A stretch of DNA of 64,000 nucleotides from Erysipelotrichaceae bacterium (lineage in GTDB: Bacteria; Bacillota_I; Bacilli_A; Erysipelotrichales; Erysipelotrichaceae). Of the stretch, positions 5,453-41,794 are shown piece by piece. The position numbers were made by a program, and so were the translations under genes. How positions within the stretch are numbered: the stretch's first letter is position 1; each line of letters begins with the position of its first letter. Below the pieces are notes generated by a model. It saw only the letters and a program-made list of their open reading frames with translations. It was not told where the DNA came from and did not search any database. The stretch spans positions 54,320 through 118,319 of the forward strand of contig JAFYHQ010000045.1 in the NCBI GenBank assembly GCA_017539105.1. The letters are read 5' to 3'.

Positions 5453-5481
5453 TTGAAAATTAAATCATTTTAAGGTAATAT
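5453..5481 (+). promoter_or_regulatory. Sigma-A-type promoter for rplJ-rplL (-35 TTGAAA 5453-5458, 17-nt spacer, -10 TAATAT 5476-5481)
   Basis: Hexamers and spacing are read directly from the sequence. Confidence 0.5.
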
Positions 5482-5489
5482 ATTATAGC

Positions 5490-5618
5490 ATCGATATACC
5501 ATAGACAGTAACGGCATCATGCTTAATAATGTTACCGAGGTAAATCTGAAATGATTTTTACCTGTGTCTGTGGGCACAGGTTTTATTTATGAGTATATGG
5601 GTGTTAGAAAGAGGGAAC
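5490..5618 (+). promoter_or_regulatory. rplJ 5' leader (probable L10 autoregulatory leader) containing the hairpin CCTGTGTCTGTGGGCACAGG
   Basis: A ~130-nt untranslated leader with a stable stem-loop lies directly upstream of rplJ. This is the conserved position of the L10(L12) leader in Firmicutes. Confidence 0.4.
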
Positions 5619-18344: not shown

Positions 18345-18605
18345 TTTTTTGAGGAATTATATCTTAAAATAGAGAAAAGCTGTGAACAGAAGAGTAGCTT
18401 GATCGGATAGCGTAGAGAATCTTTGGCTGGTGAAAAAAGATGTGGATGATCAGGGGAAGATGGTCTGGGAGCTGCCGGTCCGATATGAAGGCCGGACGCA
18501 TGCCTGCGTTACAGGGCCAGGATATGTCTGTATCCGATGAGGTGCTTTTGCACGAAATAAGGTGGTAACACGATGATAAGTCGTCCTTAGGGGCGGCTTT
18601 TTTGT
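18345..18605 (+). promoter_or_regulatory. Candidate T-box leader (Met specifier?) ending in a terminator hairpin, upstream of metQ
   Basis: A ~440-nt 5' UTR contains an AGAGAA/AGUAG (AG-box-like) region, a possible AUG specifier context (AAAGAUGUGG), a GCGUUA F-box-like element and AAAUAAGGUGGUAACACG (10/12 to the T-box core GGUGGUACCGCG). A 7-bp hairpin GUCGUCC-UUAG-GGGCGGC followed by U6 sits at 18580-18604. Confidence 0.4.
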
Positions 18606-22089: not shown

Positions 22090-22095
22090 TATTAA

Positions 22096-22212
22096 GTCCA
22101 TAAAGAGAGATGGAGAGACAAGCTCTGTGATATCTCAGCAACCTCACTGTAAGGTGCTAAAGCTTGAACGATGGGTGAAAAACATTTGCCCATCTTGTGA
22201 TGGGCTTTCTTT
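22096..22212 (+). promoter_or_regulatory. SAM-I-like (S-box) riboswitch lacking P4, with a terminator expression platform
   Basis: AGAGAGAUGGAGAGA matches the S-box P2/K-turn hallmark AGAGAGGUGGAGGGA. GCAACC...GGUGC forms the conserved P3 with a bulged A. The loop CAAGCU (22120-22125) is complementary to J3/4 AGCUUG (22161-22166), giving a pseudoknot. P1 is UCCAU (22097-22101) with AUGGG (22171-22175). The antiterminator GAUGGGU (22170-22176) with GCCCAUC (22188-22194) competes with the terminator GCCCAUC-UUGUG-GAUGGGC + UUUCUUU (22188-22212). Confidence 0.5.
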
Positions 22213-25514: not shown

Positions 25515-26357
25515 ATGAAAAAGATGCTTGTAGTTCAGACAGATTTTACTTATAAAGAAGGCGCGGTAGCAGCCATGTATGGCGTGATCAAGAGCGTGGA
25601 TCCAGACATCGAGATCATCACCGCGACCCATGAGATCCCCCAGTACGATACTTGGTCGGCATCCTATCGCCTGTACCAGTATATCGACTTCTGGCCGAAA
25701 GGAACGATCTTCATTTCCGTGGTCGATCCCGGCGTAGGAACGGACCGCAGAGCCTGTGTCGCAAAGACAAGGAACGGCTACTATATCGTGACTCCGGATA
25801 ACGGTTCTCTGACACATGCGGATCATTATTTCGGAATCGAGGAAGTTAGACAGATCGATGAAACGATCAACCGTCTGCATCGCGAAGACAACGGAGCGGT
25901 ATCGATCTTTCACGGGCGCGATCTTTTCGGTTACTGTGCAGCCAGACTGGCTTCGGGGATCATTTCCTATGAAGAAGTCGGACCTGTATACGATATCTCT
26001 GAAATCGTCCGTCACGACATCAAGGAAGCGGAAATTTTTGAAGACAGGATCGAAGGAATGTTCGAGATCAATGACCCGAATTTCGGCAATCTCTGGACGA
26101 ATATCCTCTTGAGCGATTTCCTGAAAAAACACAAGATGGGCGATCTGGTTCATACCGCGATCTATCGCGACGAAGAGAAAGTCTTCGATGACGTTCTTCC
26201 ATACTACGATTCCTTCGGCAAGGCTCCGAAGCACAGCGTGATGATCTACAACAATGAGATCAATAAGATGGGTCTGGCCGAAGTGATGGGCAATCTCTGC
26301 GAAGATTATGACTTAGGCTACGGCGAAGCATACAAGGTGGTGTTCTATGATGAATAA
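25515..26357 (+). CDS. SAM hydroxide adenosyltransferase family protein (DUF62; fluorinase/chlorinase-like fold), paralog 1
   Basis: N-terminal QTDFTYKEGAVAAMYGV, plus DNG, FHGRDLF and GNLWTNI motifs, are shared with SalL/FlA/DUF62 SAM-cleaving enzymes. Start is 3 nt after the ecfT stop. Confidence 0.75.
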   Translation: MKKMLVVQTDFTYKEGAVAAMYGVIKSVDPDIEIITATHEIPQYDTWSASYRLYQYIDFWPKGTIFISVVDPGVGTDRRACVAKTRNGYYIVTPDNGSLTHADHYFGIEEVRQIDETINRLHREDNGAVSIFHGRDLFGYCAARLASGIISYEEVGPVYDISEIVRHDIKEAEIFEDRIEGMFEINDPNFGNLWTNILLSDFLKKHKMGDLVHTAIYRDEEKVFDDVLPYYDSFGKAPKHSVMIYNNEINKMGLAEVMGNLCEDYDLGYGEAYKVVFYDE

Positions 26358-27186
26358 ACTTCTGGTATTTCAGACAGACTTCGGTCTGGACGATGGGGCG
26401 ATCAGCGCCATGGAAGGCGTCGCTTTCAGCGTCGACTTCGATCTGAATATCCGCCATCTGACGCACAATATCCCTCAGTACAACATTTTTGATGCGTCCT
26501 ATCGTTTGTATCAGGCCATCAATTACTGGCCTTCAGGGACCGTTTTTGTGTCTGTAGTAGACCCCGGCGTGGGATCGGATCGCAAGGCGGTCGTCGCCAG
26601 GACGAAGAACGACTACTATGTCGTCACCCCGGACAACGGAACCCTGACCCATATCGACCGTTTCCTGGGCATCGAAGAACTGCGGGAGATCGATGAGAAG
26701 ACAAACAGGCTGGCAGGTTCGGATCTGTCTTATACGTTCCATGGCAGAGATGTCTTCGCCTATACCGGAGCCAGACTCGCCTCCGGAAAGATCACATTCG
26801 AAGAAGTAGGACCAAAGATCGATCTGAAAGATCTGGTCCGTCAGGAACTCTATGGCTGCCATCCGATCGAAAATGGCATCATGGGGCAGATCGATATCCT
26901 GGATGTCCGTTTCGGTTCCTTGTGGACTTCGATCTCTTATAAAGATTTCATCAGCTGCGGCTTCCAGATCGGCGATGACATCCTGGTCGAGATCTTCCAC
27001 AACGATCAGAAAGTCTATTCCAACCGGATCAACTATGGAAAATCTTTTGCGGATGTCGCCATCAGCGAACCGCTGATCTATATGAATTCCGCCTATCACA
27101 TGGCGGTCGCGATCAACCAGGGATCTTTCTCCAAGGTCTATGGCATCGGCGTAGGCTCCGAATGGAAGATCACCATGACCAGATGA
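26347..27186 (+). CDS. SAM hydroxide adenosyltransferase family protein (DUF62), paralog 2
   Basis: Same motif set (QTDFGLDDGAISAMEGV, DNG, FHGRDVF, GSLWTSI). It overlaps paralog 1 by 11 nt (translational coupling). Confidence 0.75.
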   Translation: MMNKLLVFQTDFGLDDGAISAMEGVAFSVDFDLNIRHLTHNIPQYNIFDASYRLYQAINYWPSGTVFVSVVDPGVGSDRKAVVARTKNDYYVVTPDNGTLTHIDRFLGIEELREIDEKTNRLAGSDLSYTFHGRDVFAYTGARLASGKITFEEVGPKIDLKDLVRQELYGCHPIENGIMGQIDILDVRFGSLWTSISYKDFISCGFQIGDDILVEIFHNDQKVYSNRINYGKSFADVAISEPLIYMNSAYHMAVAINQGSFSKVYGIGVGSEWKITMTR

Positions 27187-27268: not shown

Positions 27269-27772
27269 ATGAATAAGAATAAAGATCTTGATATCTTTGA
27301 ACACGACGACTGGCTGAAAAAAGAAAGAGCCAGAGAAAGCAGGATCTCTGCCTGGGATTTTGATGATGCAAAGAAACTGCGTCAGGAACACGAAGATGAC
27401 TGCGACGCTGAAGATGTGGCGCAGCTGCATCGCATTGAACACAAACGCAGCAATACGATGAAAACCCCATCCTTATCCCGGATGAACGGAACGACTTCAT
27501 CAAACGATGTCGTCTGGTTCATCATCGACATCATCGCCATGTTTGTTCTGGTATTCCTGAATAACATGATATTCCGGCGCTGGGATTTCTATTGGCCGAT
27601 CATCATCCTGTTCCTGGGAATCAATCCCGGCATCTTTATCTGGCTGGCTGTCTTCAGACGCTTCCCGCCGGCAAGATTCAGTAAGCTCTTGCTGTGTATC
27701 GCGATCCTTATCGAAGTGATCGGATTCCTGTATTTTATGATTTATTATCATGGTTATTATTATTTTTTTTAG
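27269..27772 (+). CDS. Hypothetical membrane protein (acidic N-terminal cytoplasmic region, 3-4 C-terminal TM helices), upstream partner of an SPFH protein
   Basis: RBS AAGGAGGG precedes the ATG at 27269. The C-terminal half is hydrophobic. There is a 13-nt gap to the SPFH gene. Confidence 0.5.
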   Translation: MNKNKDLDIFEHDDWLKKERARESRISAWDFDDAKKLRQEHEDDCDAEDVAQLHRIEHKRSNTMKTPSLSRMNGTTSSNDVVWFIIDIIAMFVLVFLNNMIFRRWDFYWPIIILFLGINPGIFIWLAVFRRFPPARFSKLLLCIAILIEVIGFLYFMIYYHGYYYFF

Positions 27773-27785
27773 GAGGTAAAGAAGA

Positions 27786-28670
27786 ATGATTTATGTTGTG
27801 ATTATTGCATTTGTGATCCTGCTGATCCTGATGGTCCTCTTGTCATGCATCAGCATCGTTCCTCAGGGCAATGCCTGGGTCGTGGAACGGCTGGGTAAGT
27901 ATTCCGATACCTGGAAGGCAGGTCTGCATCTCAAGACGCCTGTTCTGGAAAGAGTCGTACGTAAGATTTCCTTAAAGGAACAGGTTGCCGACTTCGAACC
28001 GCAATCCGTTATTACCAAAGATAACGTCACGATGAACGTCGACTCCGTCGTCTATTTCCAGGTCATCGATCCGAAAGCGCTGACTTATGGCGTCGAACGT
28101 CCGATTGCGGCGATCGAGAATCTCTGTGCTACCACATTGAGAAACATCATCGGTTCCATGACGCTGGATGAAACGCTGACTTCCAGAGAAAAGATCAACA
28201 ATGAGACGATCAAAGTCCTGGATGAAGCCACCAACAAGTGGGGTATCGATATCACCCGTGTCGAGGTCCAGAATATCACTCCTCCGAAGTCCATTCAGGA
28301 AGCCATGGAGAAGCAGATGAAGGCAGAACGTGAAAAGAGAGCGGTCATCCTGACGGCAGAAGGCGAGAAGCAGTCTGCGATCACCAGAGCGGAAGGCGAG
28401 AAGGAGTCTGCGATCTTAAGAGCGGATGCAGTCAGAGAAGAACGTATCCGTACCGCGCAGGGTGAAGCGGAAGCGATCCGGGCCGTTGCGGAAGCGCAGG
28501 CAAAAGCCATCGAAATGGTCAACAGCGCCCATCCTTCGAAAGAATATCTGTCGATAAGATCCATGGAAGCGGCAGAAAAAATGGCTGACGGTCAGTCAAC
28601 CAAGATCATCGTTCCATCCGATCTGCAGGATATCGCTTCATTAGCTACGATCTTCAAAGAAAGCAAGTAG
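27786..28670 (+). CDS. SPFH/Band-7 family protein (stomatin/QmcA-like)
   Basis: N-terminal TM followed by the SPFH domain (IVPQGNAWVVERLGKY...), then a coiled-coil Ala/Glu-rich region. Confidence 0.85.
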   Translation: MIYVVIIAFVILLILMVLLSCISIVPQGNAWVVERLGKYSDTWKAGLHLKTPVLERVVRKISLKEQVADFEPQSVITKDNVTMNVDSVVYFQVIDPKALTYGVERPIAAIENLCATTLRNIIGSMTLDETLTSREKINNETIKVLDEATNKWGIDITRVEVQNITPPKSIQEAMEKQMKAEREKRAVILTAEGEKQSAITRAEGEKESAILRADAVREERIRTAQGEAEAIRAVAEAQAKAIEMVNSAHPSKEYLSIRSMEAAEKMADGQSTKIIVPSDLQDIASLATIFKESK

Positions 28671-29780: not shown

Positions 29781-31124
29781 TTAATCGGCTAATGATCCGA
29801 ACGGATCCCATGGATCGAGAACGATCGGTTTCTTTTCCAGTGCTTTCAGCTGTTTCTGGCTGAGATATTTCTTATGAACGACGGCTTCAAAGACATACTG
29901 ATCGAACCAGCTGTCGGAACAGATGTAGTAACCCTTGTTGGCGGACTTGTCGCCCCAGGAATTTTCGATCTTCCAGCGGGTCGGCTTATTCTTTACAAGA
30001 TTGACTCCGGTAAAGACCATTGCGTGATTCATTGCAGATTCTCTCGCATCCAGCATATCCGCTTTGGACATTCCGAGATCCATATCGAAGGTTTTCTCAT
30101 AATCCATAAGATCGTCATCCCAGAGACCCAGCTGCCGGTCTCCGTCCTTGCCGCAGTCGCAGCCGAACCAGACGATCTCTTTTTCTTTCAGCTGTTTCAG
30201 GATCAGATTCTTGAAATCATCCAGAGGAAGATTCAGGTAGAAGACTTCGTTTTCCGTTCCTGCGACATTCCCCAGGTATTTTACAGTATAGGTCTGGTAG
30301 TATTTCTTGTCATCGGTCGGACCGTTGATGATGCCTACATAATCATCGAGATCGACGCCAAGATACTTTTCATACATCTCCTGCGGAGTCACATCGTAAT
30401 AGGCATGATACTTGTCTTTCTTGTCGTAGTATTCGAAGGTGAATGTCTTCGGAGGAACGCCGAAGCAGTCGCATAACAGTCCGTAGCATTCTTTCAGGCA
30501 CTGATCTTTCATTTCTTTGATCTGTGTGTCTTTTTCTTTTTCAGGGACTTTCTTGAGATCAGTCGCAAACTTTCTCAGACGCCGGTTGATGATTCCATTC
30601 ATCGCTCTTGTATGGGAAGACTGGTACGTTTCCGGCATGGCTGTCTTCGGACAGAGACCATATTTCTTGACCAGGGATACCATCATATCCCACTGTCCGC
30701 CGTCACCGATCGCCGTCTGCAGAAGATAGCGTACGGTTTCATCATTCAAAGGCGTATCGGCTTCTTTGATCATGCATTCCAGGAAATAGTTGATCTTCTC
30801 CAGCTTGTCGTAGAAAGCGATGTAGTTCTGCGAGAATTCGAACTGTTCCTTGATGTTGTATTTTTTGGCCAGGATCTCTCTTAAGATCGTCATCGAGGAG
30901 AACAGCCAGCAGCGTCCTGAGGACATCTGGTTGTTTACAGGAAGCGTTTCGATGTCGATGGAGAAGAAATTGGGGTTCTCCGCTTTGGCTTCCAGGCGTC
31001 TTGAAATCAGTGTGAGATCGTTTTCTGTCAGTGCATTGCGAACCACTCTGGCTTTTTCGTCTTTGAGATATTCTTTGTTTAGTTCTTCAAGAAATTTCTT
31101 GCTGATTGCGTGTAGTTTTGCCAT
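29781..31124 (-). CDS. pepC: Aminopeptidase C (C1-family bleomycin-hydrolase-like)
   Basis: The catalytic Cys motif QMSSGRCWLFS, a 447-aa length and the C-terminal ...WDPFGSLA, which is typical of PepC. Confidence 0.9.
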   Translation of the reverse strand: MAKLHAISKKFLEELNKEYLKDEKARVVRNALTENDLTLISRRLEAKAENPNFFSIDIETLPVNNQMSSGRCWLFSSMTILREILAKKYNIKEQFEFSQNYIAFYDKLEKINYFLECMIKEADTPLNDETVRYLLQTAIGDGGQWDMMVSLVKKYGLCPKTAMPETYQSSHTRAMNGIINRRLRKFATDLKKVPEKEKDTQIKEMKDQCLKECYGLLCDCFGVPPKTFTFEYYDKKDKYHAYYDVTPQEMYEKYLGVDLDDYVGIINGPTDDKKYYQTYTVKYLGNVAGTENEVFYLNLPLDDFKNLILKQLKEKEIVWFGCDCGKDGDRQLGLWDDDLMDYEKTFDMDLGMSKADMLDARESAMNHAMVFTGVNLVKNKPTRWKIENSWGDKSANKGYYICSDSWFDQYVFEAVVHKKYLSQKQLKALEKKPIVLDPWDPFGSLAD

Positions 31125-32662: not shown

Positions 32663-33664
32663 ATGTCAAAAAAGTTTATCATTTTTCTGACTCTATGGCT
32701 TGTTGCTGTAGCAACACTGAATACTTTGGCTTGGACTCTTGATATCGATAGAGATAAGCTTTTTATCATCAACTACGTTATTCTGAATGTTACCTGGCTG
32801 TTGCAGCTGATCATTTCAATATTCAAGAGACGCAAAGAAGAAGATTTTTCCAGCTTGAAGTTTTTGATCTATCAGGTCGTTCTTTTGGTGATTCTGTCGC
32901 TTCTGGCAGTCTATTACAAGTTTGATTGGAAAGCATTACTGGTTCTGGCGCTTCTCTACTTGAGTATCGTCAGCGGATCAAAAGGCTATAATGCCTATCT
33001 GATTGCCTGGATGGTCATCTTCGTTGCGACTGTAGTGATCTACAGGGTCATTCCGAATGAGGAAGGCGATGTATTCGATGTCGGGTACACTGTTATGATC
33101 ATTGCTCTGGTCATCCAGCTGATCATATCTTATTTTGCTTTACTGAATAAAGAAAGAGATGTTGCGATTCCAACATTCATCATTTCGGTTATAGGATTGG
33201 TCGTGCTGGCGGCGTTCGATCTGGCAATGATCGAATATCTGTATAATCCTGCATTCCGCTACTTTATCATGACTCACGCTTATTTACGCATCTTTATCTT
33301 CAGAATCGCGGATCTGGGAAGCTGGGGGTTTGCTGTAGTCAATGTCGTTGTGCTGGCTTTGCAGTATCTTGTTACTCTGGCAGTCAATATCGGTCAGAAG
33401 AAGAATGTCGAGAGAGACAGACACTTTGTCGAAAAGACTGAAACCATGAGCTCATTAGCAAACAAAGTCAAGAAAATGGCGGACAGTACCGGAAACGAAG
33501 ACATCGGACGTCTCTACGAAGCGCTGCGTCTTGCCGATAAAGCTTCAAAGAACAGCGAAATCGAAAACAGAATCGCAGAAGAGGTCGCTAGACTTAAGAC
33601 TGTTGATTCAAATGAAATGAAAGAAGAAGTTGACTTGATCATCTCGCTGCTGAACGAGAGATAG
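32663..33664 (+). CDS. Polytopic membrane protein (6-7 TM) with a C-terminal cytoplasmic helical tail; co-operonic with the SPFH-Zn-ribbon gene and the TIR genes
   Basis: ATG at 32663 lies 3 nt after the previous stop. It is hydrophobic up to about residue 270, then charged and helical. The next gene starts 33 nt downstream with no terminator between them. Confidence 0.55.
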   Translation: MSKKFIIFLTLWLVAVATLNTLAWTLDIDRDKLFIINYVILNVTWLLQLIISIFKRRKEEDFSSLKFLIYQVVLLVILSLLAVYYKFDWKALLVLALLYLSIVSGSKGYNAYLIAWMVIFVATVVIYRVIPNEEGDVFDVGYTVMIIALVIQLIISYFALLNKERDVAIPTFIISVIGLVVLAAFDLAMIEYLYNPAFRYFIMTHAYLRIFIFRIADLGSWGFAVVNVVVLALQYLVTLAVNIGQKKNVERDRHFVEKTETMSSLANKVKKMADSTGNEDIGRLYEALRLADKASKNSEIENRIAEEVARLKTVDSNEMKEEVDLIISLLNER

Positions 33665-33697: not shown

Positions 33698-36600
33698 ATG
33701 CCTGTTTTGAAGTGCAAAATGTGTGGTGGCGACCTGAATGTCACCGATGACTCGGGTGTCGTTGTTTGCGAATACTGTGGAACAAAACAAACCATATCCC
33801 GCACAAATGATGATGTAATAAATAACCTATACAACAGAGCCAATAACCTTCGCTTGAAAAATGAATTTGATAAAGCTCAGAATGTTTATGAGAAGATCAT
33901 TGAACAAGACGCTGACGATGCGGAAGCTTATTGGTCTTTGGTGCTGTGCAAATACGGTATCGAATATGTAGAGGATCCTTTATCACATAAAAGAGTGCCT
34001 ACCGTAAACAGGACACAATACACATCGATCTTTGCGGATCACGATTATAAAGAAGCAATCAGCCGTGCCAATCCTGAGCAAAAGATCGTCTATGAACAGG
34101 AAGCTCAAGCTATTGATAAAATTCAGAAAGGTATCTTGGAAATATCCAAAAAGGAAGAACCTTTCGATATCTTTATTTGTTACAAAGAAACAGATGAAAA
34201 AGGCCACAGAACAATTGACTCCGTAATTGCGAACGATTTATATCATGAACTCGTTAACGAAGGATACAAAGTATTTTTCTCGAAAATCACATTGGAAGAT
34301 AAACTGGGCGAAGCATATGAACCATATATTTTTGCGGCACTCAATTCTGCCAAAGTCATGGTCGTGTTAGGAACGAAAGCAGATTATTTCAACGCAGTAT
34401 GGGTTAAAAATGAATGGTCAAGATATCTTCAGCTGATTGCTAAAGGCGAAAAGAAGACGCTCATTCCTGCATATAGAGATATGGATCCATATGATTTGCC
34501 GGAAGAGTTCGCTTATCTGCAGGCACTTGATATGTCCAAGATCGGTTTTGTGCAGGATCTGCTTAGAGGCATACGAAAACTGGTTGCTACCGAAGAGAAA
34601 AATGATACAAGAGAGATTATCGTTGAGAATCATAATGCTAACGCAGAACCTTTGCTGAAGCGTGCATTCATCTTTCTGGAAGACGGCAATTTCCAAAGTG
34701 CCGACGAATACTGTGACAAAGTTCTTGATATCGATCCAGAAAACGGAAAAGCCTATCTTGGAAAACTGATGGTTCAGCAAAAGATGAACACGGTTTCTGC
34801 TTTATTAGAAAATTATGAACATCTCTATGGTGATCCTGATTATGAAAGAACTAGTATTTCTGAGGTGATGGATGACTATCAGGATATCATTGCATCTAAA
34901 GTTGAAGAATATACGATTCCATCTTATCTGGAAGAAGATAAGTTAAAAGAATTATTCAGGAAATACAATACCAGCTATGATTCCAAAGTACCTGGGCTTG
35001 AGAAACAGAAAGAAATGATAATCAATCTGTTCAATGATGACCGCTCCATCTCAAAGATTCGACGTTATGGCAATCAAGATATTACATCGCTCTTTGATAA
35101 AGTAATCGAGTCTTATGATAAACGGATCGAAGAAGCAAAAGACAACGACAAAGAAACGATCGCTTTGATCAAACAGGGAGTCGTTGACTTCATGAACGAA
35201 ACTGAGGACTCAATTAAGAACCTATATGATGAGGAATCAAAAAAACGTGAAGAGGATTATGAAAAAGCGGTCGAAGATTATGAAAAGACAAATCTCATTG
35301 ACGTATTGAAGCAGAATATTGAAGTTTTCACTAAATGTGGTGATTATCGCGATAGTAAAGAGTATATCGAGAGATGCAACGTCAAGATCGCTGAGCTGAA
35401 AGAACAGCACAAGCGGGAAGAGGAAGCTGCAGCCAAGAAAAAACAGAAAACGATCTTGCTGACGGTTGCTGCAGTTATTCTGTCTATCATTGCTTTTGTG
35501 TTCTATCAGAACGTCATCCTGCCAAACAACAAGTATAATCAGGCTCATATGTATGTCGAGAACGGCGAATATGAACAAGCTGTCGCAATATATAAAGAAC
35601 TAGGTGAATACAGAGACTGTCAGGAGCTGTATAAAGATGCGTTCTATAAGCAAGGACAGGACGCTTTGCAAAAAGAAAACTATGAAACTGCAATCGCTGT
35701 TTTCACTGAATTAGGAACTTATGAAGCATCCGGTGAGAATCTGAAGCAAGCAATATATGGGTATGCGTTAAGTCTTGTGGAAAAACTGAATTATGACGAG
35801 GCGTTAGAAGAGTTCGATCTCATAAATGAATATAAAGATGTTGCTGATAAGATTCTTGATACAAAATACCATAAAGCGCAGTATCTATATGAACAGAAGA
35901 AATATGATGATGCAATAGCTTTGTTTACAGAGATAGTAGATTATGAGGATTCGAATAACTTTATTCTTAAGGTCAAATATGATAAAGCACTTTGGCTGCT
36001 TGAGAATAAAAACTATGATGAATCTATCGCGCTGTTTGATGAGATATCCGGATTTGAAGATGCTGCCAAACAAAAGAAAGAAGCAGAGAAAGAAAAAGAT
36101 AAAAACACGGTCAAGATCCCTTCTGTCTTGGATAAGAGTCAGGAGAAAGCCGAATCCTTACTGAAAGAGGCAGATCTGAAATATACAGTTAAAACCGATA
36201 CATCGCAGAATCAAGTGCCGGGAACTGTTATCAAAGTCAGCCCTGATCAGGGAACGCGTGTAATGAAAGGCTCCACTGTTACAATTACAGTTGCTAAAGG
36301 ATCATCGCAGTATTCTACTTATGCTGGCGATAATAATAACAACGTTTTATATCAGGTCAACGTATCTGGAGGTGTCAGCGATCTGAAGATCAGAAGCGCT
36401 CCGACAGCGATGGATAACAATATCCTGGATAAAGCTAAAACCGGTCAAATATTTAATGTGTATGAAACGCTTTCCAACGAAGGTTACACATGGCTGAGAA
36501 TCGGAAACAAGAGATGGATCGCCGATAATGGATCTTGGGTATATAGAGACACCAAGTGCGACAATAGAAATGGCAATTTCACTTTTGTTACAGCTACAAT

Positions 36601-36802
36601 CAGCGATCCGGACAACGACCATGTCAGTCTTTATGATAATCCTGTAGGAAATGAAAACATGAGAAACTGGGTTGGCAGCGTTTATAACGGAGAAACAGTC
36701 AAAGTATATTTCCGTTTCCATGATGGCACTTACTGGTGGTATAAAGTCGGCGTCGATCGTTGGATTAAGGATAGCGGTGAAGGCAGGGTCAAGATTAACT
36801 AG
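33698..36802 (+). CDS. Single-pass membrane TIR-domain protein, paralog A: cytoplasmic Zn-ribbon + helical module + TIR; TM; extracellular TPR-like repeats + PASTA + 2x SH3b
   Basis: Zn-ribbon CKMCGG...CEYCGT. TIR signature FDIFICYKETDEKG...SAKVMVVLGTKADYFNAVWVKNEWSRYL, with the alpha-C Glu of the SxW..E motif conserved. Single TM TILLTVAAVILSIIAFVFY at about aa 584. PASTA-like segment (TVKIPSVLDKSQEKAESLLKEADLKYTV...GSTVTITVAKG). Two SH3_3-like segments (...IRSAPTAMDNNILDKAKTGQIFNVYETLSNEGYTWLRIGNKRWIADNG...). Confidence 0.8.
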   Translation: MPVLKCKMCGGDLNVTDDSGVVVCEYCGTKQTISRTNDDVINNLYNRANNLRLKNEFDKAQNVYEKIIEQDADDAEAYWSLVLCKYGIEYVEDPLSHKRVPTVNRTQYTSIFADHDYKEAISRANPEQKIVYEQEAQAIDKIQKGILEISKKEEPFDIFICYKETDEKGHRTIDSVIANDLYHELVNEGYKVFFSKITLEDKLGEAYEPYIFAALNSAKVMVVLGTKADYFNAVWVKNEWSRYLQLIAKGEKKTLIPAYRDMDPYDLPEEFAYLQALDMSKIGFVQDLLRGIRKLVATEEKNDTREIIVENHNANAEPLLKRAFIFLEDGNFQSADEYCDKVLDIDPENGKAYLGKLMVQQKMNTVSALLENYEHLYGDPDYERTSISEVMDDYQDIIASKVEEYTIPSYLEEDKLKELFRKYNTSYDSKVPGLEKQKEMIINLFNDDRSISKIRRYGNQDITSLFDKVIESYDKRIEEAKDNDKETIALIKQGVVDFMNETEDSIKNLYDEESKKREEDYEKAVEDYEKTNLIDVLKQNIEVFTKCGDYRDSKEYIERCNVKIAELKEQHKREEEAAAKKKQKTILLTVAAVILSIIAFVFYQNVILPNNKYNQAHMYVENGEYEQAVAIYKELGEYRDCQELYKDAFYKQGQDALQKENYETAIAVFTELGTYEASGENLKQAIYGYALSLVEKLNYDEALEEFDLINEYKDVADKILDTKYHKAQYLYEQKKYDDAIALFTEIVDYEDSNNFILKVKYDKALWLLENKNYDESIALFDEISGFEDAAKQKKEAEKEKDKNTVKIPSVLDKSQEKAESLLKEADLKYTVKTDTSQNQVPGTVIKVSPDQGTRVMKGSTVTITVAKGSSQYSTYAGDNNNNVLYQVNVSGGVSDLKIRSAPTAMDNNILDKAKTGQIFNVYETLSNEGYTWLRIGNKRWIADNGSWVYRDTKCDNRNGNFTFVTATISDPDNDHVSLYDNPVGNENMRNWVGSVYNGETVKVYFRFHDGTYWWYKVGVDRWIKDSGEGRVKIN

Positions 36803-36838
36803 CGGCAGATTTGTTTATAAGCATATATTCAAGGGGGT

Positions 36839-38848
36839 ATGATGATGTTTTTGAAGTGCAAAATGTGTGGCGGAGACTTGAATATTGATAAAGGTGCTAC
36901 CACATGTAAATGTGAATATTGCGGTACGATTCAGACGATACCTGTATTGGACGACGAAAAGAAGAACAAACTTTTCGAAAGAGCCAACAGATTGCGTTTC
37001 AATAACGAATTCGATAAAGCTTATTCCGTCTATCATGACATCATAAACGACTTCCCGACAGAAGCAGAAGCCTACTGGGGGCTGCTTCTGTGCAAATACG
37101 GCATCGAATATGTTGAAGACCCTTATACTCACAAAAGGATCCCTACATGCCATAGATCTTCCTTTGAATCCATCTTTGATGATGATACTTTTGAAATGGT
37201 CATGGAGAATGCCGATGTCGTTGCCAGGGAGATCTACAGGAACGAAGCCAAGGCAATTGAAGAATTGCGGAAAAAGATCATTGAAGTCTCCAATAAGGAA
37301 GAACCATATGACATCTTTATCTGTTATAAAGAAGCCGATGAACAGAATAACAGGACGATAGATTCTGTCATAGCGCAGGATGTTTATAATGCTTTGACCG
37401 AAAAAGGCTACAGAGTGTTCTTCTCAAGGATCTCTCTTGAAGATAAACTGGGGCAGGAATATGAACCATACATTTTTGCAGCGCTGAACAGTGCGAAAGT
37501 CATGCTGGTATTCGGCACCAAGTATGATTATTTCAATGCTGTCTGGGTCAAGAATGAATGGTCAAGATATCTGCAGCTTATAGCTAAAGGCGAAAAGAAG
37601 ACACTCATACCATGTTACAGAGATATCGACGCCTATGACATGCCGAAAGAATTCCAGCATCTCCAGGCACAGGATATGGGCAAGGTAGGAGCGATACAGG
37701 ATCTGCTGCGAGGGATCGAAAAGGTCATGCCGAAGCAGGAAAAGACCGTTGTCAAGGAAACGGTTGCTGATCATGTTGAAACGGTTAAAAAAATAGAAAC
37801 CCCTGTAGAAGAAAAGCCGGTTGAGAAACAAAAGAAATCGTCCCTGGCCTTAATACTTTTCATCGTAGCCTGCATCGTAGTTGCTGCACTGGTACCGACA
37901 GTTATCATTCCGAAGTACAAATATAACAAAGCGATGGATTTGTTAGAATCCGGCAGTTATGAAGCCGCATATGCGATCCTGGAGGAAATAGGGAATGTTG
38001 AAGCGATTGCCTCAAACAAATATGATCGTGCGATCGCTTTGCTGGAATCCGGTGATTTTGAAAAAGCATACGCACTTCTGGAAGAGATCGGGAACGTTGA
38101 AGCAATTGCATCGAATATGTATGATCGTGCAGTCGCCTCGATCAATACCAGAGATTATGAAACAGCCTATATGCTGCTGAATGGACTGGATTATAAGGAC
38201 AGCGCAGACTTGCTGGATTCCATCCTTCCGGAATATCAGAGATTATTGATTTCCAGAGCGGAAGTTGGTTCTTATGTTTCGTTTGGTTCCTACGAACAAG
38301 ACAATAATACCGCAAACGGACAAGAAGAAATCGAATGGCTCGTGCTTTCAAAAGAAGGCGGTCTGATATGGCTGGTAAGCAGGTATGCTTTGGATTGCAA
38401 GCCATTCAATTACTCGCTTACTGATGTCACTTGGGAGACCTGCTCATTGCGCTCATGGCTGAATGATTCGTTCTATCATAACGCATTTGATTCGACGGAA
38501 CAGCAGATCATTGCCAGTAAATATGTAAGTGCCGACAGGAATCCTGACTATGCGGTTTCTTCCGGCAACAGCACGACAGATAAAGTGTTCCTGTTAAGCG
38601 TTTCAGAAGTAAACAGATATCTGGGATCTAATTCTGCAAGAACATGCTCCGGAACGGATTATGCATATGCACAAGGCGCATATAAGAGCAATGCAGGAAA
38701 TTGCTGGTGGTGGCTTCGTACGCATGGCGGAAGTTCCAGTTATGCCGTGAATGTCTGGGATTACGGCGCAATCGACAGCTATGGAGGCTGGGTCGACAAT
38801 AACAAATGTGGTATCCGTCCTGCGATATGTATCGAAATGGGATATTAG
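36839..38848 (+). CDS. Single-pass membrane TIR-domain protein, paralog B: same cytoplasmic Zn-ribbon + TIR module; TM; extracellular 33-aa tandem repeats + C-terminal CWWWLR...GIRPA domain (DUF6273-like)
   Basis: The N-terminal 300 aa are ~65% identical to paralog A (MCGGDLN..CEYCGT, AEAYWGLLLCKYGIEYVEDP, TIR PYDIFICYKEADEQ...NAVWVKNEWSRYLQL). TM is LALILFIVACIVVAALVPTVII. Two tandem 99-bp repeats lie at 37940-38137. The C-terminus carries a CWWWLR...NKCGIRPAICIE motif. Confidence 0.8.
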   Translation: MMMFLKCKMCGGDLNIDKGATTCKCEYCGTIQTIPVLDDEKKNKLFERANRLRFNNEFDKAYSVYHDIINDFPTEAEAYWGLLLCKYGIEYVEDPYTHKRIPTCHRSSFESIFDDDTFEMVMENADVVAREIYRNEAKAIEELRKKIIEVSNKEEPYDIFICYKEADEQNNRTIDSVIAQDVYNALTEKGYRVFFSRISLEDKLGQEYEPYIFAALNSAKVMLVFGTKYDYFNAVWVKNEWSRYLQLIAKGEKKTLIPCYRDIDAYDMPKEFQHLQAQDMGKVGAIQDLLRGIEKVMPKQEKTVVKETVADHVETVKKIETPVEEKPVEKQKKSSLALILFIVACIVVAALVPTVIIPKYKYNKAMDLLESGSYEAAYAILEEIGNVEAIASNKYDRAIALLESGDFEKAYALLEEIGNVEAIASNMYDRAVASINTRDYETAYMLLNGLDYKDSADLLDSILPEYQRLLISRAEVGSYVSFGSYEQDNNTANGQEEIEWLVLSKEGGLIWLVSRYALDCKPFNYSLTDVTWETCSLRSWLNDSFYHNAFDSTEQQIIASKYVSADRNPDYAVSSGNSTTDKVFLLSVSEVNRYLGSNSARTCSGTDYAYAQGAYKSNAGNCWWWLRTHGGSSSYAVNVWDYGAIDSYGGWVDNNKCGIRPAICIEMGY

Positions 38849-38881
38849 GATTTCATGTATCTGATTAGGAGTTAATCAATT

Positions 38882-39648
38882 GTGCCTTTATTGAAATGTA
38901 AAATGTGTGGCGGCAGCCTGAACATCATAGAAGGTCAGACAGTCTGCGAATGCGAATACTGCGGTACGAAACAGACGCTTCCAAAACTGGATAGCGAAAG
39001 AAAACTCAATCTGTATGACCGTGCTTCCTTTTTAAGAAGAAGCAACGATTTTGATAAAGCTACAGCCATTTATGAGCAGATCCTTGCTGAAGATAAGACG
39101 GATGCCGAAGCATACTGGTCTCTGGTTTTGTGCAAGTATGGCGTCGAATATGTGGAAGATCCTTCCTCTCATAAGAGACTACCGACAGTCAACAGGACAC
39201 AATTGACCTCGATCTTCAATGATCCGGATTATAAAGAAGCACTTAACCACGCTTCTGTTGAACAGAAGATTATCTATGAAGAAGAAGCAAAAAAGATTGA
39301 TGATATCCAAAAAAGCATATTCAAACTAAAGAGGTAATAACAAATGTTGGGAATAACACATACGATAGTGTTTTCTTATTAGGCACTGATGAAGTAAAAG
39401 AATACTTAAATACCATCCAGATAAGACGATGTCAGGTTTCTGAATATGCTTTCAGTCGACACGCGACAAGAGCAAGCGATGGTTACTGTTGGTGGTGGCT
39501 TCGCACTATTAGTGGTGATCATTCCAGAGCTGTTGTTGTTTATTCTGATGGCAGTATATATAGTACCGGGAATCTCGCTAATACAACAAGTAATACTGTT
39601 CGTCCTGCCATGTGGATTACTTTACCTTGATTTAGCCCAGTTATTCAT
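38882..39648 (+). pseudogene. Decayed third paralog of the Zn-ribbon-TIR membrane protein family (intact N-terminal 151 codons, internal deletion removing TIR and TM, frameshifted C-terminal CWWWLR...VRPAMWI remnant)
   Basis: 38882-39337 encodes MPLLKCKMCGGSLN..CEYCGT..AEAYWSLVLCKYGVEYVEDP, then stops. Frame +1 across 39373-39648 translates to VFLLGTDEVKEYLN...GYCWWWLRT...SNTVRPAMWITLP, which is homologous to the C-terminus of paralog B. Confidence 0.6.
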
Positions 39649-39820
39649 CTAAATATACTTATAGTTAATTACATGTCGATCATTTGGTTGACATGTTTTT
39701 TCTATTGAAAATGTCAGGAAGATCAACAGACAATGACTTTATCGTAGCAGTTTAATAGTAATAATCAGACATATTATATTTCAGGCTATGATTCAATGAT
39801 TCGTAAGTTATAATTGAACT

Positions 39821-41794
39821 ATGGATGATAGGAAATTCAAACTGGTATCACCCTTCACTCCTACCGGAGATCAGCCGGAAGCAATCGAAAAGCTGGTCGA
39901 AGGGATCAACGAAGGCAAAGAGGAACAGGTCCTTTTAGGTGCGACCGGTACGGGAAAAACATTTACGATCGCCAATGTCATCGCACAAGTCAACAAGCCT
40001 ACTCTGGTCTTCGCCCATAATAAGACTTTGGCAGGCCAGCTTTATTCGGAATTCAAGGCTTTATTCCCGGAGAATGCAGTCGAATACTTCATCTCCAACT
40101 TCGACTATTATCAGCCGGAAGCCTACATGCCCAAGACCGATACCTATATTGAAAAGAATGCCGTCACCAACGACGAGATCGACATGCTGAGGATGTCCGC
40201 ATACAACTCTCTATTGGAACGAAGGGATGTCATTGTCGTCGCGTCTGTGGCCTGCATCTATGCCGGCAGCAACCCTAAGGATTACAAAGATATGTTTTTT
40301 ACGCTGAAGGTTGGAGAGATCATCGACCGTCAGGATCTGATTAAAAGATTAGTCGTCATGCAGTATCAGCGCAACGATGTGGACAAGCTGCGCGGAACGT
40401 TCTCCGTCAAAGGCGATGTCATCGAGATCTGTCCGGGACATACCGATGCCTTCATCATACGGGTTGAAATGTTTGATGACGAAGTCGAGAGGATCACCGA
40501 GATCGAACCTGTCACCAAGAATCTGATCAATGGCTATACGATCTATTCCTTCTTCCCGGCATCCGGCTATGCGCGCAAGAAAGAAGACCTTCTGATTGCC
40601 TGCGACAATATCGAAAAAGAACTGGAAGAACGGCTCGAATACTTCAAAGAAAAAGGCAAAGCCGTGGAATATGAACGTCTGGAACAGCGCTGCCGCTATG
40701 ATATCGAGGCTTTAAGAGAAATGGGCATGTGCTCGGGCATTGAGAACTATGCGATGCATATCGACCACCGTGTACCGGGAGAGAGACCTTACAACCTCTT
40801 TGATTATTTCGGCGATGATTTCCTGATCGTGGTCGATGAATCCCATGCGTCTCTGCCGCAGATCCGGGGCATGTACAATGGCGATCATCAGCGCAAGCTG
40901 ACTCTTGTGGAATACGGTTTCCGTCTGCCTAGCGCTCTGGAAAACCGCCCGATGCGATTCGATGAATGGGAAGAGATCAATGCCCAGCGCATCTATATGT
41001 CCGCGACTCCGGGAGATTATGAACTGGAACGCAGCGGTGAAGTCGTAGAACAGCTCATCCGTCCGACCGGACTGGTCGATCCAAAAGTGGAAGTACGCAA
41101 GACCAACGGCCAGATCGACGACCTGATGCAGGAGATAAATGCAACGATCGAGAAAAATCAGCGTACCCTGATCACGACACTGACAGTCAAGATGGCCGAA
41201 GATCTCAGCGACTATCTGCAGAAGCTGAACTATAAGGTTGCCTATCTCCATCATGAAACCAAGACGCTGGAACGAAGCGAGATCATCCACGACCTGAGAG
41301 AAGGAAAATACGATGTCCTGGTCGGAATCAATCTGTTAAGAGAAGGACTGGATATTCCGGAAGTATCCCTGATCGCGATCCTGGATGCGGACAAAGAAGG
41401 CTTCCTAAGAAGCTCCCGTTCCCTGATCCAGACCATCGGCCGTGCCGCCCGTAATGTGGATGGCAGGGTCATCATGTATGCGGACGAGATCACTGATTCC
41501 ATGAAACAGGCCATCGATGAGACCGAACGACGCAGGAAGATACAGATCGCCTATAATGAGGAACATCACATCACTCCGCGTTCCGTCGTAAAAGAAGTCA
41601 ACGAAGTCATCCATTCGAAAGAAACCAAAGAAATGGCTCGCAAATATAACCAGAAGCATAAGCACACGAAGGCGGAAAAAGAAAAACTCATGGCTTCGAT
41701 CGAAGCGGAAATGAAACAGGCTGCAAAACAGCTGAATTTCGAGCGTGCCGCCGAACTGAGGGATATCCTGTATGAACTCCGAGACGAAGATTGA
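39821..41794 (+). CDS. uvrB: Excinuclease ABC subunit B
   Basis: Walker A GATGTGKT, helicase motifs, the beta-hairpin region and the C-terminal UVR domain (ELRDILYEL). Confidence 0.95.

Follow-up and report, generated by a model that had tools for sequence, protein, structure and literature searches.

Known bacterial systems built around TIR (Toll/interleukin-1 receptor) domains detect infection intracellularly. Thoeris ThsB, TIR-SAVED, TIR-STING, the AbTir/BtpA-type NADases and retron-TIR are soluble proteins that respond to a trigger within the cell or to a nucleotide signal. Here, we analysed a 64,000-nucleotide (nt) stretch of an Erysipelotrichaceae bacterium (assembly GCA_017539105.1, contig JAFYHQ010000045.1, positions 54,320–118,319), hereafter the window, in which two adjacent genes encode TIR proteins of a different kind. 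These proteins, receptors A and B, are predicted to span the membrane once and to place large, unrelated C-terminal domains outside the cell. They are encoded in the distal part of an operon whose first two genes specify an SPFH protein and U, a polytopic membrane protein, and which closes with the remnant of a third receptor gene, pseudogene C.

The soluble systems were distinguished from this locus by their partners as well as by their topology. No ThsA, CD-NTase, SAVED, STING or reverse-transcriptase partner accompanies A and B, and matches to those families were far below cutoff. Thoeris in particular was not recognized, as the operon contains no ThsA-like gene, the NCBIfam ThcB4 model scored 20 bits against a cutoff of 220, and PADLOC returned no ThsB match for A or B. 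Identity with a known defence system was rejected on the PADLOC and NCBIfam scans, the former a check proposed by the first-pass annotation of this DNA. Searches of open-access papers and bioRxiv found no description of receptor-type membrane TIR proteins of this kind or of their operon, also in the open-access TIR surveys and papers on diversity-generating retroelements (DGRs), although a mention in other literature is possible. The sequences themselves are not new. The operon proteins span GenBank entries MBR4462790–MBR4462793, of which MBR4462790 is annotated as an 'SPFH domain-containing protein' and MBR4462792 and MBR4462793, that is A and B, carry the generic label 'TIR domain-containing protein'; the family counts thousands of members, annotated no more specifically.

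A shared module with a TIR domain

Receptors A and B are 61% identical across their first 311 residues and unrelated beyond. Both contain a CxxC...CxxC motif at residues 6–27 and an AEAYW.L.LCKYGIEYVEDP motif, and the Pfam family TIR_2 (PF13676) was matched with 47.3 bits by A and 48.0 bits by B against a curated cutoff of 28. The layout of A comprises a zinc ribbon (residues 1–32), a TPR-like head with a β-hairpin (39–152), the TIR domain (158–297) and a TPR/coiled region predicted to be cytoplasmic (298–582), and B likewise comprises zinc ribbon, head and TIR domain (159–297). An AlphaFold model of residues 1–303, with a predicted local distance difference test (pLDDT) score of 83.9 and a predicted template modelling (pTM) score of 0.80, showed a zinc ribbon formed by cysteines 6, 9, 24 and 27, three TPR-like helices, a β-hairpin built by the invariant YGIEYVEDP...PTVNR stretch, two long helices and, at 158–297, the flavodoxin-like fold of TIR domains. 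The TIR structure was taken from this separate module model because the TIR region of the full-length B model was of low confidence (about 45–70), the combined alignment being poor there. A search of the PDB with the module profile returned mostly TPR designs, with the TIR domain of a Toll-like receptor (TLR) at an E-value of 0.004.

The glutamate of the VWVKNEW motif (E239 in A, codon 34412–34414; E240 in B, codon 37556–37558) occupies the catalytic position in helix αC (W-x3-E). An alignment of 57 relatives shows it as invariant and one of 70 as nearly so; its counterpart in AbTir is E208, at an hhalign probability of 97.2%. The first-pass annotation had described a module of zinc ribbon, AEAYW motif and TIR domain with the αC glutamate retained, and for A and B this description was borne out by the Pfam scan and the AlphaFold model that it had suggested as checks.

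Membrane topology and outer domains

A Kyte–Doolittle scan revealed exactly one hydrophobic segment per receptor, at residues 585–603 of A and 339–357 of B, which corresponds to a transmembrane (TM) helix at about 583–606 (35444–35515) and 336–360 (37844–37918), respectively. An N-terminal signal peptide was found in neither protein. The lysine and arginine residues on the N-terminal versus the C-terminal flank of the helix number six versus one in A, a clear signal, and four versus three in B, a weak one. Together with the four-cysteine ribbon at the N-terminus and the extracellular type of the C-terminal domains, these features indirectly support a single-pass topology with the N-terminus inside and the C-terminus outside (N-in/C-out).

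Beyond the TM helix, A carries TPR-like repeats, a PASTA domain (805–867; 36110–36298; 52.6 bits in Pfam) and two SH3b-like units (894–1034), for which SH3_3 scored 25.2 bits, just below its cutoff of 27. B carries helical-hairpin repeats (361–473) and a DUF6273 lectin-like domain (479–669; 38273–38845; 95 bits), and its ectodomain was modelled with a pLDDT above 95. A Foldseek search with this ectodomain matched the IgA peptidase of Thomasclavelia ramosa (E 1e-5) and phage DUF6273 proteins (E 1e-7). The secreted, sortase-anchored T. ramosa IgA protease carries DUF6273 at its N-terminus (PMC12402451), and the domain is also reported as a C-type-lectin-like DGR target in receptor-binding proteins of gut phages (PMC10743442). 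PASTA, SH3b and DUF6273 are domains otherwise found extracellularly, which lends indirect support to the outward orientation of the C-terminus. The ligands of A are probably of the peptidoglycan type, and B may recognize a ligand of the lectin type. The PASTA/SH3b and lectin-like ectodomains that had been proposed earlier were recovered, SH3b just below cutoff.

Of note, a 99-nt tandem duplication (73% identical; 37917–38114) within the B gene gives rise to two 33-residue helical-hairpin units, KYxxAxxLLESGxxExAYxLLEEIGNVEAIAS, just outside the TM helix. In A and many relatives, too, the TM helix is followed by similar units.

Family size, hosts and turnover of the outer domains

A search with the module in a 90%-clustered collection returned more than 3100 proteins, most of them about 70% identical, and a search in a 50%-clustered library returned 7074 clusters, 4110 of them at E ≤ 1e-30, with the module always occupying residues 1–300. 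As the module is highly conserved and yet yields thousands of 50% clusters, the C-terminal parts must differ widely. The module has about 90 invariant positions, and A and B keep all family-invariant residues. Among the 150 best cluster representatives, 110 had a single TM helix, 21 had none and 19 had two or more hydrophobic segments. The helix of most of the 110 single-TM proteins is followed by more than 100 residues (full range 3–2440), and a few of these proteins are no more than tail-anchored. A Pfam census of 57 representatives, in which domains were counted anywhere outside the module and on either side of the TM helix, identified TIR_2 in all 57, DUF6273 in 20, RCC1 in six and Lcl_C in three, along with single cases of a BspA-type leucine-rich repeat (LRR), LRR_8, a solute-binding domain and ankyrin repeats.

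The hosts are gut and rumen Clostridia, including Oscillospiraceae, Lachnospiraceae, Acutalibacteraceae, Ruminococcaceae, Anaerovoracaceae and others, and between Clostridia of different families the module remains about 70% identical. The module was absent from 50,697 phage and 72,556 plasmid records and was matched twice among 2.9 million IMG/VR contigs; an origin from mobile elements was rejected, the module being essentially absent from the phage and plasmid collections. Two proteins from the same gut metagenomes, P0301 and P0313, combine a double zinc ribbon with DUF6273 and have no TIR domain, which suggests that the TIR module is one option within a broader class of zinc-ribbon/TM/ectodomain proteins.

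A conserved operon with a variable gene slot

GTDB species genomes contain at least 582 loci of the family, and operon conservation was assessed on the 79 of them that scored best. A homolog of the SPFH protein of the window (Band_7_1, E 1.7e-36; Zn_Ribbon_1, E 2.6e-19; DZR, E 1.7e-12) is encoded in 57 of them. Fifty-three loci contained at least 4.5 kb of sequence upstream of the first receptor gene, and in 37 of these the SPFH gene lies upstream on the same strand as the receptor, with a median start-to-start distance of 2160 nt; it lies downstream of the receptor in six more loci. Almost all of these 37 loci have, between SPFH and receptor, an open reading frame (ORF) of about 232 residues with several hydrophobic segments. 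This 4-TM family shares a conserved RYSDPMS motif, predicted to be cytoplasmic, and a C-terminal RNxKCKLLK motif. Window U is a divergent member, 21–25% identical to the ORFs of other loci, and for U and the family no match was found in Pfam, NCBIfam or PADLOC, nor anything credible in the PDB. Tandem receptor genes, two or three, occur in 16 of the 79 loci, as in the window. We defined the SPFH/4-TM/zinc-ribbon-TIR receptor operon as one in which the receptor is directly preceded, on the same strand, by an SPFH (Band_7_1) gene and one for a polytopic membrane protein, and the locus has this arrangement.

U and the SPFH partner each show further variation. Window U has an N-terminal extension of about 100 residues (32663–33000) with extra hydrophobic segments and contains neither the RYSDPMS nor the RNxKCKLLK motif. 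The SPFH partner does not end in the same way at every locus (L036:8465–8710 and L038:7364–7690): its C-terminal extension consists of fused double zinc ribbons in the window, but can instead be a separate ORF, either of 109 residues with four ribbons or of 82 residues and assigned by eye as SHOCT-like.

About a third of the 37 loci with an upstream SPFH gene contain an extra gene between U and the receptor. Its spacing was measured in eight loci; seven showed a gap of 23–34 nt to, or an overlap of 1–14 nt with, the receptor start, and the eighth, L042, a distance of 361 nt. The contents of this slot vary. L016 and L060 encode a stand-alone AbTir-like TIR protein of 141–150 residues with FxSHSSxDK and WTEYE motifs (PADLOC PDC-S66, E 1e-40; ThsB, E 1e-24), L047 and L034 encode DUF4365 nuclease-like proteins, and L029 a DUF2971 protein. 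HEPN proteins resembling pEK499_p136 were matched above cutoff in L036 and below it in L042 and L068, and were recognized in L006 by the R-x4-H motif only. Other slot genes encode small zinc-ribbon/TM proteins, RCC1 proteins and a helix-turn-helix protein. Such swappable, sensor-less genes of effector type, apparently coupled in translation to a conserved core, would be typical of conflict systems.

Diversity-generating retroelements in relatives

In four loci (L049, L029, L023 and L057), an intact receptor of 829–863 residues with one TM helix ends in DUF6273, and its last 42 codons or so are the variable repeat of a DGR. A template repeat and an RVT_1 reverse transcriptase are encoded downstream, and 16–24 of the 17–26 mismatches between the repeats fall on adenines of the template. 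A fifth locus, L085 (GCA_964261755.1), likewise has a DGR, with its receptor split into two ORFs. The predicted extracellular part of the receptor thus appears to be deliberately hypermutated in some relatives, at least four. In the split receptor (L085:8001–10580), a cytoplasmic module of 498 residues and a TM-plus-DUF6273 protein of 324 residues are encoded 108 nt apart, whereas a single polypeptide is encoded in the other four loci; the split may reflect a misassembly, a disruption of recent date or a true two-chain form.

The decayed third gene and the layout of the locus

Pseudogene C consists of two fragments in different frames. The head fragment, 61.6% identical to residues 1–151 of A, stops after 151 residues, with no TIR match in Pfam and no TM helix, and the tail fragment is 41% identical to residues 576–667 of B (E 7e-23). 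Because the head stops without TIR domain or TM helix and the end of a DUF6273 domain follows in a different frame, C is called, from its sequence, an internally deleted pseudogene devoid of TIR domain, TM helix and most of the ectodomain. The tail was also considered as the template repeat of a DGR; this was rejected, as its protein-level identity to B is only 41% and a DNA-level match is lacking.

This changes part of the picture drawn by the first-pass annotation, which had seen three consecutive co-oriented TIR paralogs, each with one TM helix and a large, differing C-terminal ectodomain. The tandem arrangement, the single helix and the divergent ectodomains stand for A and B, 61% identical over 311 residues; the third gene is a pseudogene with neither TIR domain nor TM helix. 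The TM helix assigned to it belongs to a hydrophobic 68-residue ORF (39446..39652) in the wrong frame of the C tail, and the end of the gene at about 39648 falls with it. The implied isolation of the array did not hold either, as the receptor genes are the distal part of the SPFH/U operon. Gene calls did agree that the locus has no integrase or transposase and lies among core genes, with pepC upstream and uvrB downstream.

All genes between 31341 and 39700 are on the plus strand, with intergenic gaps of 2–36 nt. The locus is 100% identical across five independent metagenome contigs, the C remnant included. Window coordinates equal those of the gene-called locus copy L001 plus 23697. A variant of B with 667 residues in L004 differs only in the start-codon call. 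The features are listed in Table 1.

Table 1. Features of the receptor operon and its flanks, in window coordinates
Feature	Position	Strand	Remarks
pepC-like peptidase	29781..31124	minus	upstream flank
SPFH (Band_7_1) protein with C-terminal double zinc ribbon, 439 residues	31341..32660	+	first operon gene
Polytopic membrane protein U, 333 residues	32663..33664	+	several hydrophobic segments; predicted cytoplasmic helical C-terminal domain
Receptor A, 1034 residues	33698..36802	+	TIR_2, one TM helix, PASTA, SH3b-like
Receptor B, 669 residues	36839..38848	+	TIR_2, one TM helix, DUF6273
Pseudogene C, head fragment (zinc ribbon and helical head)	38882..39337	+	151 codons, then stop
Pseudogene C, tail fragment	39334..39630	+	other frame; last ~95 residues of the DUF6273 domain
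Terminator-like hairpin with T-run	39671..39696	+	probable operon end, before uvrB; consensus match alone
uvrB	39821..41794		downstream flank

Elsewhere in the window, about 3 kb upstream of the operon (27269–28670), a 167-residue ORF with no Pfam match is followed by a 294-residue Band_7 (PF01145) protein, a pair that looks like an NfeD/stomatin-type arrangement; two different SPFH proteins are therefore encoded within 5 kb. Tandem paralogs of 277 and 279 residues with SAM_HAT_N/SAM_HAT_C domains (SAM hydroxide adenosyltransferase or fluorinase-like) are located at 25524–27186, downstream of ECF/CbiQ transporter genes. Rfam matches above the gathering score comprised an L10 leader (5481–5596), a T-box leader (18373–18591) and a SAM riboswitch (22095–22177), as is typical for a Firmicutes chromosome, and tRNA genes were found nowhere in the 64 kb.

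Possible mechanism and biological role

The reading that we favour, tentatively and at a little under an even chance, is that the locus is a single operon for a membrane-embedded sensing system—an SPFH scaffold, the 4-TM-type protein U, two type-II receptors and a third, decayed one—which probably serves defence or conflict by sensing a phage or a competitor at the cell surface. Binding of a ligand to an ectodomain, or perturbation of the envelope, would alter receptor clustering in the membrane, and the clustering would bring the cytoplasmic TIR domains together. Once assembled, these would cleave NAD+, causing its depletion or yielding a signalling nucleotide, or would nucleate and activate partner proteins. 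The SPFH protein and U would provide a membrane scaffold or restraint, possibly an effector, and in relatives the slot effector would act with the module, SPFH and U. Defence or conflict is the most likely role by analogy with other TIR systems, considered with the swappable effector genes and hypermutating ectodomains of relatives; it is favoured because of ectodomain turnover, tandem duplication and decay, DGR targeting and the effector slot. The abortive-infection or envelope-sensing role suggested by the first-pass annotation is strengthened by the last two features. On a bolder version, which we consider rather unlikely, the family would be a bacterial counterpart of TLRs, in which fast-diversifying recognition domains at the surface, DGR-hypermutated in some species, are connected by one TM helix to the TIR domain and in which surface contact with a phage or competitor leads to TIR assembly and to growth arrest, NAD+-based or effector-mediated, with SPFH and 4-TM protein as a hitherto unknown scaffold or effector pair; this would constitute pre-entry, anticipatory immunity in gut Clostridia.

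The receptor TIR may be an enzyme or an assembly platform. In a survey that assayed 160 TIR domains (Weagley 2022, PMC9092222), two constructs of the isolated TIR of Eubacterium eligens EUBELI_RS07950/C4Z355 are listed with the in vitro product 'None' (Table S2), and metagenomic family members are predicted 'Inactive' (Table S1). The zinc ribbon and the LCKYGIEY and VWVKNEW motifs recur in the E. eligens protein, which aligns with B over 329 residues at 50% identity. As its isolated TIR gave no product, the retained glutamate does not prove NADase activity. The null result counts against constitutive activity of the bare domain, the assembled or full-length protein being a separate matter; in the amoeba protein TirC, a TM tether restrains the TIR NADase (PMC13142454). 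The invariant glutamate argues for catalysis by the receptors, and the in vitro null for at least tight regulation.

Several other results also weigh against a defence system at this locus. When all five operon proteins were scanned with PADLOC and NCBIfam, the only matches were below threshold or to the PASTA part, and no system model was matched. The operon of the window has no extra effector gene. A tblastn search with the DGR reverse transcriptase of a relative found none in the window, and in a blastn search of the B 3' end and the C tail against all 64 kb the only similarity was one of 20 nt between the two. With no template repeat and no reverse transcriptase in the window, B is not an active local DGR target, and because the five locus contigs are identical, they carry no information on its diversification. 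The topology was judged from the Kyte–Doolittle scan and domain logic, with a weak positive-inside signal in B, and the operon statistics describe the best-scoring loci rather than the whole family. Furthermore, the locus sits among housekeeping genes and not in a defence island, its module shows a degree of conservation close to that of housekeeping proteins, an unusual trait in immune sensors, and the SPFH partner and PASTA/SH3b ectodomain fit envelope homeostasis equally well.

Envelope homeostasis is, accordingly, a serious rival, if an unlikely one by our estimate, and remains serious because of the SPFH partner, the PASTA/SH3b domains, the core-genome setting and the strong module conservation. 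The receptors would watch the cell's own peptidoglycan or surface and, with the SPFH protein, organize a membrane microdomain response to stress, as pspA-ydjGHI does in Bacillus subtilis. The most conserved neighbour is indeed a Band_7_1 SPFH protein with zinc ribbons, and in B. subtilis the operon partners YdjG (zinc ribbon and TM) and YdjI (band 7) recruit PspA, with YdjH as a membrane protein (PMC9239133). Both outer domains of A are of peptidoglycan-binding types, the locus is chromosomal in a family absent from phages and plasmids, and TIR-less proteins such as P0301 and P0313 exist. This account leaves unexplained the turnover of ectodomains, the DGR hypermutation of DUF6273, the tandem duplication with pseudogenization and the coupled TIR, HEPN and DUF4365 genes, and the gene calls of L001 include no PspA-like gene beside the operon.

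A role as surface adhesins or ligand binders for colonization, in which host glycans, IgA or other microbes are bound, the module merely anchors and the TIR is a non-catalytic assembly domain without signalling, appears improbable. It would accord with the finding that, in cells, DGRs mostly target membrane-anchored proteins which bind extracellular substrates (Roux 2021, PMC8144416), with the occurrence of DUF6273 in a surface IgA protease (PMC12402451) and in phage proteins, including the DGR-target domain of receptor-binding proteins (PMC10743442), with the silent TIR of E. eligens and with the many family members that are only tail-anchored or have no TM helix. However, an anchor needs no 300-residue module with some 90 invariant positions, among them the catalytic-position glutamate; the conserved SPFH and U partners and the co-transcribed nuclease, RNase and TIR genes would go unexplained; and Gram-positive adhesins normally carry signal peptides and sortase motifs, which A and B lack. 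That the locus is decaying or non-functional here, with A and B headed for the fate of C, is barely credible to us. One of three copies is already an internally deleted pseudogene, and the window is devoid of DGR and accessory effector, but A and B are full-length and retain every family-invariant residue, the operon is tightly spaced, the B ectodomain was modelled with high confidence, and five independent metagenome assemblies carry identical copies of the locus.

Returning to the receptor-like TIR proteins, the observation holds for two genes of the window, and the receptor-like reading is supported as far as sequence analysis reaches. With its conserved operon, its effector slot and the ectodomains targeted by DGRs, the family gives the finding a significance beyond that of the single locus. 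A surface-reading TIR receptor, if confirmed, would add detection before or at entry to the intracellular detection of known systems. Given its very large size in gut Clostridia of humans and animals, the family may shape phage–host or cell–cell interactions in the microbiome, and through the conserved SPFH and 4-TM partners the function of bacterial SPFH proteins can be approached in a new way. A cultured carrier, E. eligens ATCC 27750, makes the hypothesis testable.

Comparison with known systems

The PASTA serine/threonine kinases (PknB/Stk1/PrkC) resemble the predicted layout of receptor A in being type-II single-pass proteins with a cytoplasmic signalling domain and extracellular PASTA units, and residues 800–878 of A match the PASTA part of the Stk1 model. 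In A, a TIR domain replaces the kinase and one PASTA unit is followed by SH3b-like units; the full model scored 45 bits against a cutoff of 450, so that A is not a Hanks-type kinase. As in the PspA-YdjGHI system, a band-7/SPFH protein is encoded at the locus alongside a zinc-ribbon TM protein and a further membrane protein. The likeness is one of gene arrangement. No PspA is encoded beside the operon, and the zinc-ribbon TM protein bears a TIR domain and large, variable ectodomains here.

DGR lectin sensors coupled to TIR effectors have been reported (Dore et al. 2024, PMC10907252; Kaur et al. 2020, PMC7159879). These share with L023, L029, L049, L057 and L085 a C-terminal lectin-like domain, rewritten by a DGR, in a TIR protein, in line with the notion of a hypervariable sensor joined to a death or signalling effector. 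The reported systems are mostly STAND NTPase or vWA-MoxR ternary modules, with most targets predicted to be cytoplasmic, and stem from cyanobacteria, Chromatiales and similar multicellular bacteria. In contrast, the diversified domain lies beyond a TM helix here, no NTPase is present and the carriers belong to the gut Clostridia. The window itself is without a DGR. In these relatives, a DGR-rewritten outer domain would mean that a TIR receptor is coupled to targeted hypermutation in ordinary gut bacteria too, and not just in multicellular ones.

Finally, the first-pass annotation had proposed a TLR-like topology. The receptor-like layout is supported indirectly, as a mirror image of the animal TLRs. 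As in TLRs and the interleukin-1 receptor, a single-pass protein is predicted to combine a variable extracellular ligand-binding domain with a cytoplasmic TIR domain, and paralogs have conserved TIR domains and divergent ectodomains. Some family members have putative LRR ectodomains, and in some loci a small soluble TIR gene beside the receptor recalls the logic of receptor plus adaptor. However, the order is reversed, with the TIR domain N-terminal, the sensor C-terminal, a predicted N-in/C-out orientation and no signal peptide, so that A and B are not of type I. They further differ in their zinc-ribbon/TPR head, the retained glutamate at the catalytic position, PASTA/SH3b and DUF6273 domains instead of LRRs, and SPFH and polytopic partners. 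The resemblance is architectural and does not imply common descent of the whole receptor; if the surface-sensing reading is true, it would be the closest architectural parallel yet between bacterial TIR proteins and animal TLRs.

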